This document shows, piece after piece, positions 21,678-31,090 of a DNA stretch of 64,000 nt (within the stretch, counting starts at the first letter, position 1; every line of letters begins with the position of its first letter). A program made the translations under genes and the position numbers. The notes beneath the pieces are model-generated. The model was not told the origin of the DNA, did not search any database, and saw only the letters and a list, made by a program, of their open reading frames with translations. The stretch is from Myxococcota bacterium (GTDB lineage Bacteria > Myxococcota_A > UBA9160 > SZUA-336): NCBI GenBank assembly GCA_965247115.1, contig CBDFGR010000002.1:1856001-1920000 (forward strand). The letters run 5' to 3'.

Positions 21678-24600
21678 GTGGCGGGGGTGATACTGAGATC
21701 GGCTCGGGGGGAGCTCCGAACCGCCCGAGCTAGGGAGTGGCTCTCCGCGCATCTTCCAGCCGCCGAGGTTCTGGTCGTCGCGGCGACCCCTGACGCCGCT
21801 AGCGACCTGTTGCGCACGGCGGCTCTGAGCCAGGGCGCGTCCTTTGGCTGGCATCGGGCCACCCTTGGACGCCTGGCCGCAGAGCTCGCTACGCACGCTC
21901 TCGTCGAGGACGAGCTCGCTCCGATCGGGCGGCTCGCGTCGCAGGCCGTCGTGGCCCGCGTCCTGCACGAGCTGGCAGAGAGCGACGGGCTGGGGCGCTT
22001 CGTCGAGACCGCTCACGGCCCGGGGCTGGCGCGCGCGATCTCGGAGACTCTCGGGGAGTTGAGGCTCGCAGGGATCACAGCCGAGTCGCTCGGAACGGTC
22101 ATGCCCGAGCTCCGAGCGATCGCCACCAGCTACGACGTTGCTCTGCAGCGCGCGCAACTCATCGACCGGGCAGGCGTCTTCCAGCTGGCAGCCCGCCTGG
22201 CGGCAGAACCCGAGGTCGCGAGCCCGCTGCTCGGGCTTCCGACCCTGCTCCTCGACGTACCTGTCGAGAGCGCTGCGGAGCGCGCGCTCGTCGAGGCGCT
22301 CGCGGCTCGTTCTCCCTCGCTCCTGGCGACGGTTCCGGCGGGAGACGAGCGCGGCCGTCGGAATCTGGAAGCGGCTCTGGGAACAAGAGCGGAGGATCTG
22401 GAGAACAACTCCGCGACCTCTCTCTCTCGCTTGCAGACCCACCTGTTCGAGGAGTCGGCGCCTGCGCCAGCGGAGCTCGGCGAGGACGTGATCGTGCTCT
22501 CTGCCCCCGGAGAGAGTCGAGAGTGCGTGGAGATCGCCAGGCGGCTGCGTCGCTTTGCCGCAGAGGGAATCCCGTTCGACCGGATGGCGGTTCTGTTGCG
22601 CTCGCCGGAGGAGTACCGCCCACATCTGGAAGAGGCGCTCGCCCGCGCCGAAATTCCGGCTCACTTCGTGCGCGGCGCTGTGCGGCCCGATCCGGCGGGG
22701 CGCGCGCTTCTCGCTCTGCTCGGCTGCGCGGCGGAGCGACTCTCGGCGCGCCGATTTGCAGAGTACCTCTCGTTGGGTCAGGTCCCGTCTGCCGACGAGG
22801 CGGGTGCCCCACCGGCGCCTCGGGCGGACCGCTGGGTCGCGCCAGACGAGGAGCTCGTGTCCGAGATCGTGAGGGAGGGGGTTGCGGAGGGAGTGGCAGC
22901 TTCGGACCCGGGTGGGCTCGTGGACGATCCGGATGAGGCGCCCGTTGCGGCGGGAACGTTGCGTGCGCCGCGGCGCTGGGAGGAGCTTCTCGTCGACGCA
23001 GCCGTCATCGGCGGGAGGGACCGCTGGCAACGCCGCCTGGACGGAGTGGGGCGCGAGCTGAGTCTGGATCTGGAAGCGTTGGAGGAGGACGACCCCCGCC
23101 AAGAGCGCATCACCCGCGACCTGAAGGATCTCGCGAGCCTCCGTGACTACGCGCTTCCGCTGATCGACGAGCTCGACGCGCTGCCGAGGCGCGCGAGCTG
23201 GGGGGAGTGGCTCGACGCGCTCTCGGCTCTTGCCACCCGTTCCCTGCGACGGCCCGAACGGGTTCTCTCCGTTCTGTCCGAGCTTGCGCCCATGGCACCG
23301 GTTGGGCCGGTAGAGCTGCGGGAGGTCCGGCTGGTGCTGCAAAGCCGCCTGCAGCAGGTGCACGAGCCCCCGTCGAAGCGGCGCTATGGCCGAGTCTATG
23401 TCGCACCGACCGACGCGGCGCGCGGGCTCGCGTTCGAGGTCGTGTTTGTGCCGGGGCTTGCCGAGAAGCTGTTCCCGCGCAATATCGTCGAGGATCCGAT
23501 CCTGCTCGACGCGGCGCGGGAGCCCCTTGGCGGTCTCACGACGGACACGGAGCGGCTGGCCGGAGAACGGCTCGCGCTGCGGCTCGCGCTTGGCGCGGCG
23601 TCTCGGGTCGTCGTGCTCTCGTACCCGCGCCTGGACTTGGACCAGGGACGCCCGCGCGTTCCCTCCTTCTACATGCTGGAGGCGCTGCGCGCAGCGGAAG
23701 GGCGACTCCCCGGTTTTGACGAGCTGGCCGCCCGCGCGGAAACGCTGGCGGAAGTGCGTGTGGGATGGCCGGCGCCGGCCCGGCCGGAGGATGCGATCGA
23801 CGAGGCTGAGCACGACTTGGCGCTGCTCGAGAAGCTGCTGAGGGCGAAGCCCGGGGAAGGCATCGGCACGGCGCGCTACCTGCTCGCGGCGAACGAACAC
23901 CTCGGACGGGCGCTGCGTTTTCGCGCGCGCCGCTGGTTGCGACGCTGGACACCGGCTGACGGGCTGCTCGAGCCGACGGACCAGGCTCGTGAGGCCATGC
24001 GCGCGCACCAGCTACACGCGCGCAGCTACTCGCCTACGGCCCTTCAGAACTTCGCATCTTGTCCGTACCGGTTCTTTCTCTCCGCAGTGCTCAGGCTCGC
24101 TCCGCGCAGCATGCCGGAGGCGATCGAGGAGCTGGATCCACTGCAGCGGGGCTCGCTGGTTCACGAGGTGCAGTTCGAGCTGTTCCAGGAGCTGTCCCAG
24201 GAGGGTCTGCTTCCCGTAACACCACAGAACCTCCGCCGCGCGCGCGAGCTCCTCGACGCGGTGCTGGATCGGGTCGCTGCGCGCACGCGCGACGAGCTCG
24301 CGCCCGCGATCGAGCGCGTGTGGGAGGACTCCGTGGGATCGATCCGTGCCGACCTGCGCGAGTGGCTGCTCCGCATGAGCGAGGACGAGTCCGGCTTTGT
24401 GCCGTGGCGCTACGAGCTGGCGTTTGGTCTCCCCGGGCGACGTGCGGCGGATCCTCACTCTGCGCCCGAAGCCGCAGAGCTCGACTGCGGCGTTCGCCTG
24501 CGCGGCTCGATCGATCTGGTCGAGCGGCGCGGGGATGGCCACCTGCGTGCGACGGATCACAAGACGGGCAGGGAGCGCTTCAAGGCGGGAGCCGTCGTCT

Positions 24601-24941
24601 CGGGTGGAGAGGTGCTCCAGCCCGTACTCTACGCGCTGGCTCTCGAGAAGGTGTTTCCCGACGCAGAGGTCGATTCCGGACGCCTGTACTACTGCACGTC
24701 GGCGGGTGGCTTCACGGAGCGCGCGGTTCCCCTCGATGAGAAGGCCCGCCACAGTGCCGGCGAGCTCGCGAAGATCGTCGGCGCTGCCCTCGAGAAGCCG
24801 TTCCTGCCCGCGGCTCCAGCCAGGCGGGCCTGCGAGTGGTGCGACTTTCAGGTGGTCTGTGGTCCGTACGAGGAGCTGCGTACCGGGCGCAAGCCGCCGG
24901 GTGAGCTCGCGGATCTCGAGCAGCTCCGGGGCCTGCCATGA
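21678..24941 (+). CDS. addB: AddB-like subunit (inactive helicase fold + PD-(D/E)XK nuclease with Fe-S cysteines)
   Basis: 'YSPTALQNFASCPYRFF', 'RGSIDLVE..DHKTG', 'CEWCDFQVVC'; ATGA overlap with the addA-like gene. Confidence 0.8.
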   Translation: MAGVILRSARGELRTARAREWLSAHLPAAEVLVVAATPDAASDLLRTAALSQGASFGWHRATLGRLAAELATHALVEDELAPIGRLASQAVVARVLHELAESDGLGRFVETAHGPGLARAISETLGELRLAGITAESLGTVMPELRAIATSYDVALQRAQLIDRAGVFQLAARLAAEPEVASPLLGLPTLLLDVPVESAAERALVEALAARSPSLLATVPAGDERGRRNLEAALGTRAEDLENNSATSLSRLQTHLFEESAPAPAELGEDVIVLSAPGESRECVEIARRLRRFAAEGIPFDRMAVLLRSPEEYRPHLEEALARAEIPAHFVRGAVRPDPAGRALLALLGCAAERLSARRFAEYLSLGQVPSADEAGAPPAPRADRWVAPDEELVSEIVREGVAEGVAASDPGGLVDDPDEAPVAAGTLRAPRRWEELLVDAAVIGGRDRWQRRLDGVGRELSLDLEALEEDDPRQERITRDLKDLASLRDYALPLIDELDALPRRASWGEWLDALSALATRSLRRPERVLSVLSELAPMAPVGPVELREVRLVLQSRLQQVHEPPSKRRYGRVYVAPTDAARGLAFEVVFVPGLAEKLFPRNIVEDPILLDAAREPLGGLTTDTERLAGERLALRLALGAASRVVVLSYPRLDLDQGRPRVPSFYMLEALRAAEGRLPGFDELAARAETLAEVRVGWPAPARPEDAIDEAEHDLALLEKLLRAKPGEGIGTARYLLAANEHLGRALRFRARRWLRRWTPADGLLEPTDQAREAMRAHQLHARSYSPTALQNFASCPYRFFLSAVLRLAPRSMPEAIEELDPLQRGSLVHEVQFELFQELSQEGLLPVTPQNLRRARELLDAVLDRVAARTRDELAPAIERVWEDSVGSIRADLREWLLRMSEDESGFVPWRYELAFGLPGRRAADPHSAPEAAELDCGVRLRGSIDLVERRGDGHLRATDHKTGRERFKAGAVVSGGEVLQPVLYALALEKVFPDAEVDSGRLYYCTSAGGFTERAVPLDEKARHSAGELAKIVGAALEKPFLPAAPARRACEWCDFQVVCGPYEELRTGRKPPGELADLEQLRGLP

Positions 24942-27900
24942 CCCAGAGCGACACCGAGGCGCGTCGCCGGATCCGGGAGGATCTCGACTCCACTCTCTTC
25001 GTCGAAGCTGCGGCCGGAACGGGAAAGACGACCGAGCTCGTCGCCCGCATCGTCTCCCTGCTCGAGAGCGGTCGCGCGACACTCGAGGGGATTGTGGCGG
25101 TCACTTTTACCGAGAAGGCTGCCGGGGAGATGAAGCTGCGGCTGCGGGCGGAGATCGAGCGCGCCAGGGAGCGCGAGGGTGTCTCGCCGTCGGAACGGGC
25201 GTTCCTGGACGGGGCACTCGGCCAGCTCGAGATCGCTCACATCGGGACGATCCACGGCTTCTGTGCCGACCTGCTGCGCGAGCGCCCGGTCGAGGCCGGC
25301 GTGGACCCGCTCTTCGAGGTCGCACCGGAGGACGAGCAACGCGAGCTCCTGGACGGTGCCTTCGACGCGTGGTTCCAACGCACGCTCGCGGATCCCCCGG
25401 AAGGCGTGCGGCGGGTCCTCCGAAGACGGACACGCGGCCCCAATGCGGTAGGGCCCCGAGCCAGCCTGCGGGCCGCAGCGGAGAAGCTGCTCGATCACCG
25501 GGACTTCACGGCCGCGTGGCAACACATGCCCTTCGATCGCAGAGCGGAGATCGACGGCGTCATGGATCGACTCGCGACGCTCGCGCCGCTCGCAGGACAG
25601 GCGAGCAGGCGAGACAGCTATCTCGCGCGGAGCTTTCGCGAGATCAACGGCTTTGTCGACGAGACCGCGCACCGCGAGGCGGTACGTGGCCGCGACTACG
25701 ACGGTCTGGAGGCCGAGCTGCGGCAGTTCCACCGCGCAAGGCACTGGAGGTGGAAGGGCAGCGGGAAGTGGTTCGGGAAGGGGCTCGAGCGCGACGGCGT
25801 GCTCGCAGAGCGAGATGGCGTCAAGACCGATATTGGAGCGCTACTCGCACGCGCGGACGCGGAGCTCGCTGCGTACTTGCGCGAGGAGCTGCGCCCCCTC
25901 GTCGCTACCTACGAGTCGCTGAAGGAGCGCATGGGGAAGCTCGACTTCCTCGATCTGCTCCTGCGCGCGCGCGACCTCGTGCGAAACGACCACGGGGTAC
26001 GCGAGCTGCTCCAGTCGCGCTTTACCCACTTCTTTGTGGACGAGTTCCAGGACACAGATCCGCTTCAGGCGGAGCTCCTCATGCTGCTCGCCGCAGCGGA
26101 TCCGCGGGAAACCGACTGGCGACAGGTGAGACCGGTGTCCGGGAAGCTCTTCCTCGTCGGAGATCCCAAGCAGTCGATCTACCGCTTCCGGCGCGCTGAC
26201 GTCGACGTCTACGAGTCCGTGAAGCAGCAGCTCTCGCTGCATGATGCTGGGGTCCTGCACCTGAACAGGAGCTTCCGGAGTGTCCCCTCACTGCAGTCTG
26301 CCGTGAACGCGTCCTTCGAGCCCGTGATGTCCGGATCCGAAAGCGGGAGCCAGGCCCGCTACGTGCCGCTCGAGCCGTTTCGTCCCGAGACGCAGGAGCA
26401 GCCCAGTGTCGTGGCGCTCCCCGTACCCCGGCCGTACGGCGACTACAGAACCATCGTGCAGTGGAAGATCGAGGAGTCGTTCCCGGATGCGGTCGGGGCC
26501 TTCGTAGACTGGCTGATTCACAAGAGCGGCTGGACGGTGGTGGAGCGCGATCGGCCCGAGCAACGTGTGCCGATCCAGGCGCGTCACGTCTGCCTGCTCT
26601 TTCGGCGCTTTCGCCGCTTTCGCGACGACGTGACGCGCCCGTACGTACGGGCGCTCGAGGTGAGGCGCGTGCCGCACGTGCTCGTGGGTGGGCGCTCGTT
26701 CCACGCCCGCGAAGAGGTGCTCGCGATTCGCAACGCGCTCTGTGCGATCGAGTGGCCGGAGGACGAGCTGCGCGTCTTTGCCACGCTGCGCGGTCCGCTG
26801 TTCGCATTGGGAGACGATGCGCTCCTGGCCTTCCACCATCGCGTAGGGCGGCTGCATCCGCTCCGTCGCCTGGACCGGGACTCCCACGAAGACTCGGACC
26901 GCGCGGTTGGCGAGGCGCTAGAGGTTCTCGGGCGGCTCCACGTCGGCCGCAACCACAGGCCCGTGGCAGAGACGCTCGTGCGCCTGCTCGGAGCGGTGCG
27001 TGCGCACGCCGGGATCGCGATCACGCCGACCGGGGAGCAGGCACTGGCGAACTGCTTGCGAATGGTGGAGCTGGCGCGGCGCTTCGAGCGTGGCGGCGCC
27101 TCGTCCTTCCGGGCCTTTGTAGAACGCATGGAGAGCGATGCCGAGCGCGGTGAATCGCAGGAAGCACCCGCAGTGGAAGAGGGTACCGAGGGTGTGCGCA
27201 TCATGACGGTACACAAGGCCAAAGGCCTCGAATTCCCCGTCGTGGTTCTGGCGGATCCGACATGCAACGCGACGATGGACGTGCCGACGCGTCACATCGA
27301 CGCCGAGAAAGGCCTGTGGGCGGAGCCCTTGTGTGGCTGCGCTCCCCAGGACCTGCTCGACGCGCGGGAGGAAGAGGCGCGGCGGGACCGCGAGGAGGCC
27401 GTGCGTCTCACCTATGTTGCAGCGACGCGAGCCCGTGACTTGCTGGTGTTGCCCGTGATCGGGGATCCGACGAACGCCGACAGCGAGCGCTGGCTCGATG
27501 TCATGAACCCCGCTGTCTTTCCGGAGCCCGAGCAGCGCAGGGCCGCCACTCCTGCGCAAGGCTGCCCGGAGTTTGGCGAGGACAGCGTGTTCGAGCGGCC
27601 GGACAACGTGGAGCGCGGACCAAAGGGCTCGATTGCCCCGGGGTCGCATCAGCCGCAGGCCGGATCGCACCGGGTCGTCTGGTGGGATCCTGCGGTTCTG
27701 GAGCTCGACCAGGAGCAGACCGTAGGGCTGCGTCAGCAACCCATCCTCGAGGCGGACGAGGGCGAGGTCGCTGCGGACGAGGGGGTCCAGGCGCACGAGC
27801 GCTGGCAGACCGCGCGAAAGGAAGCGCTCGAGCGTGGCGCCGAGCCACTGCTGCGCGTCGAAGCCGTGACCTCGCTCGCGGAGCCCACCGAAGACGGCAT

Positions 27901-28384
27901 ACACATCGACGTGTTAGAGGTCGCAGTCGACCGTGGCTCGCGCCCGTCGGGTCGGCGGTTTGGATCTCTCGTACACGCGAGCCTTGCCGTGGTGGATCTG
28001 CAAGCCGATGCCTCTGCCGTTCACCAGACGGTGCGAGCACAGGCCCGGCTCGTCGGAGCGTCGGGCGACGAGTTGGCCGCTGCAGCGACCGCCGTCGGTG
28101 CGGCCCTTGCGCATCCGCTGGTGCGCCGCGCTGCGCTGGCTCACGGGCGCGGTGAGCTTCGCCGCGAGACACCGGTCATGCTGCTGCGCCCCGATGGAAC
28201 TCTCGCCGAGGGGGTGGTGGACCTGGCCTTTCGCGAGGAATCCCGCTGGATCGTGGTCGACTTCAAGACGGACCGGGAGCTCGAGCCGCGTCGGCGCGAG
28301 TACGAGGCGCAGGTCGGGCTCTACGTAGAGGCGGTTGCGCAGGCGACGGGAGAGCCGGCGGAAGGGTGCTTGCTGCTGCTCTGA
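24938..28384 (+). CDS. addA: AddA-like UvrD helicase/nuclease
   Basis: 'AAAGTGKT', 'VDEFQDTD', 'VGDPKQSIYRFR', 'MTVHKAKGLEF', 'YVAATRA', C-terminal 'GVVDL..VDFKTD'. Confidence 0.85.
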   Translation: MTQSDTEARRRIREDLDSTLFVEAAAGTGKTTELVARIVSLLESGRATLEGIVAVTFTEKAAGEMKLRLRAEIERAREREGVSPSERAFLDGALGQLEIAHIGTIHGFCADLLRERPVEAGVDPLFEVAPEDEQRELLDGAFDAWFQRTLADPPEGVRRVLRRRTRGPNAVGPRASLRAAAEKLLDHRDFTAAWQHMPFDRRAEIDGVMDRLATLAPLAGQASRRDSYLARSFREINGFVDETAHREAVRGRDYDGLEAELRQFHRARHWRWKGSGKWFGKGLERDGVLAERDGVKTDIGALLARADAELAAYLREELRPLVATYESLKERMGKLDFLDLLLRARDLVRNDHGVRELLQSRFTHFFVDEFQDTDPLQAELLMLLAAADPRETDWRQVRPVSGKLFLVGDPKQSIYRFRRADVDVYESVKQQLSLHDAGVLHLNRSFRSVPSLQSAVNASFEPVMSGSESGSQARYVPLEPFRPETQEQPSVVALPVPRPYGDYRTIVQWKIEESFPDAVGAFVDWLIHKSGWTVVERDRPEQRVPIQARHVCLLFRRFRRFRDDVTRPYVRALEVRRVPHVLVGGRSFHAREEVLAIRNALCAIEWPEDELRVFATLRGPLFALGDDALLAFHHRVGRLHPLRRLDRDSHEDSDRAVGEALEVLGRLHVGRNHRPVAETLVRLLGAVRAHAGIAITPTGEQALANCLRMVELARRFERGGASSFRAFVERMESDAERGESQEAPAVEEGTEGVRIMTVHKAKGLEFPVVVLADPTCNATMDVPTRHIDAEKGLWAEPLCGCAPQDLLDAREEEARRDREEAVRLTYVAATRARDLLVLPVIGDPTNADSERWLDVMNPAVFPEPEQRRAATPAQGCPEFGEDSVFERPDNVERGPKGSIAPGSHQPQAGSHRVVWWDPAVLELDQEQTVGLRQQPILEADEGEVAADEGVQAHERWQTARKEALERGAEPLLRVEAVTSLAEPTEDGIHIDVLEVAVDRGSRPSGRRFGSLVHASLAVVDLQADASAVHQTVRAQARLVGASGDELAAAATAVGAALAHPLVRRAALAHGRGELRRETPVMLLRPDGTLAEGVVDLAFREESRWIVVDFKTDRELEPRRREYEAQVGLYVEAVAQATGEPAEGCLLLL

Positions 28385-30483: not shown

Positions 30484-30528
30484 CGCGGGTCAGAACCCGA
30501 AGTCGCGGGTCAGAACCCGAAGTCGCGG
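30484..30528. repeat. 20-bp tandem duplication covering the stop codon of the histone-fold gene
   Basis: CGCGGGTCAGAACCCGAAGT x2 followed by CGCGG. Confidence 0.9.
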
Positions 30529-31001
30529 TCGAGGACCGTCTTGCGTTCTGCGCGGCGCGCGTTCTGGATCGCTCGATCCGCGAGCTTGCGCACCTCATCG
30601 GACAGGATCTCCATGACCCGGTCCGACGTACTCATGCCCGAGCGCGCTTTGACGTACGTCTTGAGCTTCGAAGCAACGATGAGCACGTCGCGCGGCAGGC
30701 CCTCGACCTCCAGTCCGGCTGCTGCCGCAGCAGGGGACGAGGCGATGATGCGTCGTGGGCGCTTCGCCTTGGCAGCGGGCGGGCGCTCAGGAACCGCCTC
30801 ACCCTCCGCCGGAGCTCGCTTCTCGATCGCCCAGGACTCGCGGTGGTTCACGAGTCCGAGATGCGCGTCCCAGCAATCGGTTCTGCAGAACGCGAGTGCC
30901 GTGCGCTTGCGGTTGCAGGTCGACACGTTGCAGACCCAGTAAACCTCCCCGTACGCAATCGGGCGCTTGCAGCTGCTGCAACGCCGCCAGATGTTCGGCA
31001 T
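30510..31001 (-). CDS. ZZ-type zinc finger fused to a bacterial histone fold
   Basis: C8/C11/C24/C29/C39/C43/H47/H53; C-terminus 'VLIVASKLKTYVK..MSTS..A..NARRAERKTVLDRDF' with the RKTV..D histone motif. Confidence 0.85.
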   Translation of the reverse strand: MPNIWRRCSSCKRPIAYGEVYWVCNVSTCNRKRTALAFCRTDCWDAHLGLVNHRESWAIEKRAPAEGEAVPERPPAAKAKRPRRIIASSPAAAAAGLEVEGLPRDVLIVASKLKTYVKARSGMSTSDRVMEILSDEVRKLADRAIQNARRAERKTVLDRDFGF

Positions 31002-31090
31002 CGGCCCCTCCCAAAAGCGCGCGAAACGACGTCGCTTTTGTAGGGTACAAACCTCGCTGGATCGGGCCAGGCTCGTTACTCTCCTGCGCC

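Follow-up and report, generated by a model that had tools for sequence, protein, structure and literature searches.

ZZ histones, in which an N-terminal zinc finger is fused to a bacterial histone fold, were described by Schwab et al. (2024, PMC11390915), with D0LYE7 as an example. HBb (Bd0055) is a 64-residue, abundant, probably essential and stand-alone histone; the protein studied here has about 100 extra N-terminal residues. In Bdellovibrio the ZZ histone is lowly expressed (PMC11390915). Bd3044 of B. bacteriovorus, probably the ZZ-histone orthologue, does not make up for a loss of Bd0055 (reported among PMC10627809, PMC11318664 and bioRxiv 10.1101/2025.09.24.678257), and bd0055 and bd3044 peak together late in growth (bioRxiv 10.1101/2025.09.24.678257). 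Here we analyze a ZZ histone gene in a 64,000-nucleotide stretch (the window) of a Myxococcota bacterium (contig CBDFGR010000002.1). The first-pass annotation of this DNA stated that such fusions had been noted and called their function uncharacterised; the fusion is indeed already published, yet the family is experimentally untouched, and the gene is a tidy representative of the bacterial histone class that is understood least. Our comparisons narrow what the finger might bind and tentatively favor a scarce accessory histone that bends DNA as a dimer and whose independent finger binds something other than a histone, a mechanism to which we give just short of an even chance.

The gene is real and its anatomy had been read correctly, with exact open reading frame, coordinates and strand and an agreeing ribosome-binding site upstream. 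Its features are:

30510..31001, minus strand: ZZ histone gene (P0001, 163 amino acids), an intact open reading frame of 163 codons, also identified by homologue search
30810..30989, minus strand: binuclear treble-clef zinc finger, residues 5–64, from conservation, a model pLDDT score (predicted local distance difference test) of 84 and fold comparison
30696..30809, minus strand: Ala/Pro-rich linker, residues 65–102, predicted disordered, net charge +1, from low pLDDT, variable length and low identity
30744..30755, minus strand: RRII, a short recurring linker motif, residues 83–86, from a pattern count against shuffles
30519..30695, minus strand: HBb/Bd0055-type alpha3-truncated histone fold, residues 103–161, with RD clamp R153/D160, from a sequence match and model superposition
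31005..31012, minus strand: ribosome-binding site GGGAGGGG, read from the sequence, purine-rich and 3 bases before the ATG
30484..30528, no strand: tandem duplication of 20 bp, perfect and 2.2 copies long, that spans the stop codon, from the sequence

The protein is almost certainly a typical member of the published family. D0LYE7-type ZZ histones have the same N-terminal C4 plus C2H2 finger and C-terminal bacterial-dimer-like fold, with no difference of kind. At a constant offset of 12, seven of the eight ligands given for D0LYE7 coincide with those found here; the spacing of 204 of the 209 sequences aligned below would place the sixth ligand of the published legend, C53, at C55.

Histone fold

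Residues 104–161 matched HBb (PDB 8cmp, 8fvx) with an E-value of about 2e-6 and HLp at 1.7e-5, in agreement with the Bd0055-type C-terminus proposed for this protein. The suggested AlphaFold comparison with Bd0055 gave the same picture, as a single-chain model of the full-length protein (48 sequences) superposed on HBb at 1.1–1.2 Å over 58–59 residues. The mean pLDDT of the model was 80.8, and its predicted template modelling score of 0.44 and low-confidence linker are as expected of two independent domains. The fold has the short alpha2, one-turn alpha3 and RD clamp of HBb (PDB 8cmp, 8fvx, 9ezz, 9f0e), at 34% identity. The DNA-contact residues of HBb (N22, R57, S9, T53, T8, S24, K10, K12, K52 and K16; PMC11317129) map, in the same order and at an offset of +102, to S124, R159, S111, T155, A110, S126, K112, K114, K154 and K118. 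Eight of the ten are identical; T8 is replaced by Ala and N22 by Ser, a position at which 80% of the ZZ-histone family keeps Asn. The RKTxxxxD motif is present (R153-K-T-V-L-D-R-D160), as are the basic alpha1 residues K112, K114 and K118. In a family alignment of 209 non-identical sequences (the 120 proteins listed and the genes of 95 loci), S111, K114, S126, T155, R159 and the clamp residues R153/D160 are conserved at 98–99%.

Face-to-face histones (HLp, PDB 9qt0; HTkC, PDB 9f2c) have the same alpha3-truncated fold, at a root-mean-square deviation of about 1.0–1.5 Å. The residues that form the face-to-face tetramer of HLp, R49 and N53 (PMC12701072), correspond to N147 and A151, in family columns composed of N (53%), E (13%), K (7%) and S (7%) and of D (35%), E (25%), A (23%) and N (7%), respectively. 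The R and N ahead of the RxT are thus not kept in the 209-sequence family, and a dimer is therefore expected. By analogy to HBb, the histone fold probably forms this dimer and bends DNA.

Zinc finger and linker

The C6H2 cluster noted at the N-terminus is near-invariant at all eight ligand positions across the 209 homologues, with C8, C11, C24, C29, C39, C43 and H53 at 100% and H47 at 99%. The spacing C-x2-C-x12-C-x4-C-x9-C-x3-C-x3-H-x5-H is identical in 204 of them. Two zinc sites are predicted, C8/C11/C39/C43 and C24/C29/H47/H53, with the pairing taken from the legend of Fig. 4 in PMC11390915. Mean pairwise identity is 67% in the finger, 64% in the histone fold and 31% in the linker. The net charge of the finger is +6 in this protein, with a median of +4 in the 207 sequences used for the linker, charge and fold-count statistics, and seven positions of the alignment are mostly basic (6, 7, 12, 31, 32, 33 and 54).

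Sequence and fold place the finger only loosely among described families. Comparison of its model with known folds led to a tie within about one Z unit between ZZ, B-box, L24e/TRASH and HIT, none scoring 5 or above; ZZ domains came first by a non-significant margin. The sole sequence match of the finger profile in the PDB was weak (MYM-type 2das, E 1.7). The weak Pfam matches of 78 fingers, all below curated cut-offs, were to VATC (32), zf-FCS (19), zf-FLZ (19) and zf-HIT (18), and Pfam ZZ was absent from the best 25 of the 26 families that they matched. By these weak matches, the finger would be TRASH/FCS-type in sequence. The F-C-[ST]-x-x-C signature is common to the finger and the TRASH/FCS/MYM, YacG, L24e and HIT treble clefs. 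However, TRASH and YacG fingers hold a single zinc, and neither the C24/C29 loop nor the H47/H53 pair is present in them. Unlike the ZZ domains of eukaryotes (ZZZ3, HERC2, p62, Rsc8, Nbr1), the finger has a third pair, C-x3-C, after a Phe, and is missing the two aspartates with which they cage the N-terminal amine of a ligand. The position of ZZZ3 D824 is taken by S9 (range 4–63 against 819–874) in a column that is 97% Ser, and that of D848 by A37, a mapping inferred from strand and helix positions, in a column of V (45%), A (32%), S (3%) and F (3%). Hence, neither cage column is acidic in the 209-sequence family.

The finger also occurs in other architectures. Genes for stand-alone fingers without a histone fold are present at L187:1021-1233, L188:462-674, L189:976-1275, L192:1025-1354 and L191 near 1730-1929. 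In five of the six loci fetched, the gene stops immediately behind the finger, and the downstream sequence, about 1 kb or longer, has no histone fold; in the sixth, the contig breaks off. The ESM Atlas also holds unnamed clusters of finger-type proteins of 69–78 residues. One finger precedes two tandem histone folds in eight of the 207 proteins (P0059, P0063, P0070, P0072, P0077, P0090, P0115 and P0117), and L125 encodes this form as well. The stand-alone fingers and double-fold forms together indicate that the finger is a separable, self-contained module. A phylum-wide sample contained it in 21 of 101 genomes, 17 of them in the class of the host, and its conserved residues are the same in this class and in a second lineage, sampled as 61 genomes of the order to which an uncultured Bdellovibrio record belongs (Bdellovibrionales-order sample).

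The linker is poorly ordered in the model (pLDDT under 50 at residues 84–89 and 94–100) and ranges from 18 to 111 residues in the 207 homologues. It had been described as basic and tail-like. The stretch quoted for this description is present (residues 71–86), but the wording was overstated: eukaryotic histone tails are free, strongly basic N-terminal extensions, whereas this linker is internal, with a net charge of +1, and 52 of the 207 linkers have a net charge of zero or less. The pattern [RK]R[RK]?[IVLT][IVLA] occurs in 148 of the 207 linkers (shuffles: mean 6.8, maximum 14). Judged by these counts, the RRII stretch is a non-random motif, and we call it lineage-biased because just 3 of 13 Bdellovibrionota-labelled loci have the pattern and the sequences are related. 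The accessible text of PMC11390915 makes no mention of this motif, stand-alone fingers or double-fold forms.

Companion histones and the ligand of the finger

A search for partner histones, which the first-pass annotation had proposed, identified two more in the genome by profile, both outside the window. One (G000:C2:1056951-1057142, minus strand; L096:1480-1695, minus strand) is a tail-less histone of 71 amino acids, P0121, with full-length alpha2 and alpha3. Its best PDB matches are archaeal histone folds (1f1e, HPhA, HMfA) and H2B. What we take to be the archaeal tetramer-interface His aligns with a Lys in P0121. In the sample of relatives (41 genomes, 30 of good quality, host genome included), 32 genomes have a P0121-type protein over the PF00808 cut-off; there are 125 database homologues, and groEL adjoins the HMf-like gene in 8 of 20 loci. 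The other (G000:C3:2203705-2203932, plus strand; L129:1405-1632, plus strand) is a histone of the face-to-face type, 75 residues long, that has at its N-terminus a basic tail of 22 residues and is matched in 37 of the 41 genomes. Its tail begins Ala-Ala-Arg-Lys-Lys, and the start MA[AG][RK][RK] is shared by 22 of the 30 tails inspected; once Met is removed, Ala would be the first residue, as it is in H3. Nucleosomal histones have been stated to be exclusively archaeal (Schwab et al., 2024, PMC11390915). Against this statement, the apparent retention in a bacterial class of an HMf-like full-length histone beside a tailed face-to-face histone would be the more surprising lead. In the literature, as far as its text was accessible, we found no prior description of a class-wide HMf-like histone, of stand-alone fingers or of double-fold forms; a literature search on the HMf-like histone turned up general articles about bacterial histones only.

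Among the 30 good genomes, 21 combine the finger with the tailed and HMf-like histones, four combine it with the tailed and an HBb-like histone, and one has the finger and the HMf-like histone only; in one of these 26 the finger occurs alone. No finger was found in the remaining four, although one of them carries a fragment of the histone domain where a contig ends. G002, G016 and G028, good-quality relatives of which one is in the same genus, lack a detectable finger and have other histones. In family f5, all six sampled genomes (G028, G031, G035, G037, G039 and G040; L117-L122) are missing the HMf-like histone and carry a stand-alone HBb-like histone that is 51–56% identical to the ZZ-histone fold. 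No sampled genome had both of these histones, and since the replacement pattern is confined to one family, it represents one event.

These distributions bear on the idea that the finger is the protein's own reader, which would bind the face-to-face histone by its free N-terminal tail and thereby place the ZZ histone on the chromatin of that histone. The tailed partner with its H3-like start, its presence in 25 of the 26 good finger-bearing genomes and the top rank of ZZ domains in the fold list speak for such a reader; because partner histones were found, the idea stays alive, although it is quite unlikely. The cage aspartates are replaced by S9 and A37, finger and tail are both basic, the linker offers no free N-terminus, and the four good relatives without a finger all keep the tailed histone. 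In the Bdellovibrionales-order sample, a tailed histone accompanied the finger in 7 of 29 genomes and was present in 10 of 32 without it (Fisher p 0.58; related genomes are not independent). A tailed histone was called here from a face-to-face match at E 1e-7 or better (12 were inspected, all tailed; 5 were not), a profile that could miss distant tailed histones in genomes for which completeness figures are not given. Furthermore, the two lineages do not differ in finger sequence, and the accessible text of Schwab et al. (PMC11390915) is likewise negative. An elaborated version, in which tailed, HMf-like and ZZ histones form a three-histone system and the finger reads the Ala-Ala-Arg-Lys-Lys tail via a non-canonical surface (D45, E55, W57 and E60), is similarly improbable; if true, it would constitute a bacterial histone reader.

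A rather more plausible alternative, if still an unlikely one, is an adaptor for a conserved protein other than a histone: its dimer would be anchored on DNA, and its finger would recruit a DNA-processing machine or control it. Aromatic and acidic positions that are invariant in the finger, and the existence of stand-alone fingers, fit this role. One version is a gyrase contact like that of the gyrase inhibitor YacG, whose invariant Trp is the key GyrB contact (PMC4083091). A profile comparison with 25 YacG sequences (probability 57%, score 24.9, 32 columns) scored above 40 of 40 loose shuffles, a relaxed alignment set W57 against this Trp, and a search of 10 genomes of the host's class found YacG in none. 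However, 4 of 150 strict column shuffles, with zinc ligands and F38 fixed, reached the YacG score; the invariant Asp of YacG aligns with the zinc ligand H47, with W57 six residues further out; and YacG co-occurs freely with the finger (in the Bdellovibrionales-order sample, present in 17 of the 29 genomes with the finger and in 21 of the 32 without, by hand count). A YacG-like affinity is thus a minor possibility. The six cysteines and two histidines, together with the sequence likeness to the TRASH group, named for predicted metal sensing (PMC4999995), could also make the finger a zinc or redox switch that unfolds upon zinc loss or cysteine oxidation and alters DNA binding by the dimer. This role appears improbable: the model has no finger-histone packing to carry the signal, and no neighbour gene is widely common across homologous loci. 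Cross-braced fingers with two zincs are, moreover, normally structural. Least probable is a role in bulk chromatin, in which the protein would package the genome in the manner of HBb and the finger would be an expendable addition. The near-complete HBb DNA-binding surface would suit it, and histone searches of the host genome returned no stand-alone HBb-type gene; against it stand the low expression of the Bdellovibrio orthologue (PMC11390915), the wider retention of the two other histones in relatives and a finger conserved as strongly as the fold.

We therefore return to the scarce accessory histone as the preferred explanation. Its HBb-type fold would form a dimer that binds DNA irrespective of sequence and bends it. 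The basic two-zinc finger, on its flexible tether, would supply another contact, for which nucleic acid is the likeliest partner. The protein would act at selected sites rather than in bulk packaging. Low abundance is likely by analogy to the Bdellovibrio orthologue, and the conservation of the finger, on a par with that of the fold, counts in favor, as do the lack of compensation by Bd3044 for Bd0055 and the failure to find the finger in four of the 30 good genomes. The weakest step is the ligand: the finger is separable and conserved in two lineages whatever other histones are present, and its ligand is therefore probably not a histone tail. We consider nucleic acid about an even prospect and a conserved non-histone protein somewhat less probable.

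Locus and distribution

The search for homologues retained 1,574 database proteins out of 1,638 candidates of 89–286 residues. The few with a named source are from Myxococcota, and the titles of genome records with a ZZ histone are mostly Myxococcota, Deltaproteobacteria and Bdellovibrionales. Many of the codon differences between the gene and those of four relatives are synonymous-only. The 20-bp duplication at its stop codon is crossed gap-free by contigs of runs X3 and X7 and is also spanned in a contig of a related strain from a separate study. The gene's neighbours are a cupin gene, arranged tail-to-tail with it, and a DUF481 gene, arranged head-to-head. An 8-bp inverted repeat with a 13-nt spacer (31012-31040) directly adjoins the ribosome-binding site in the space that separates the divergent pair; no conservation of it was found upstream of the relatives' genes. 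Elsewhere in the window (21678-28384, plus strand), two long open reading frames of 1087 and 1148 amino acids resemble, by eye, an AddB/AddA-type nuclease-helicase pair.
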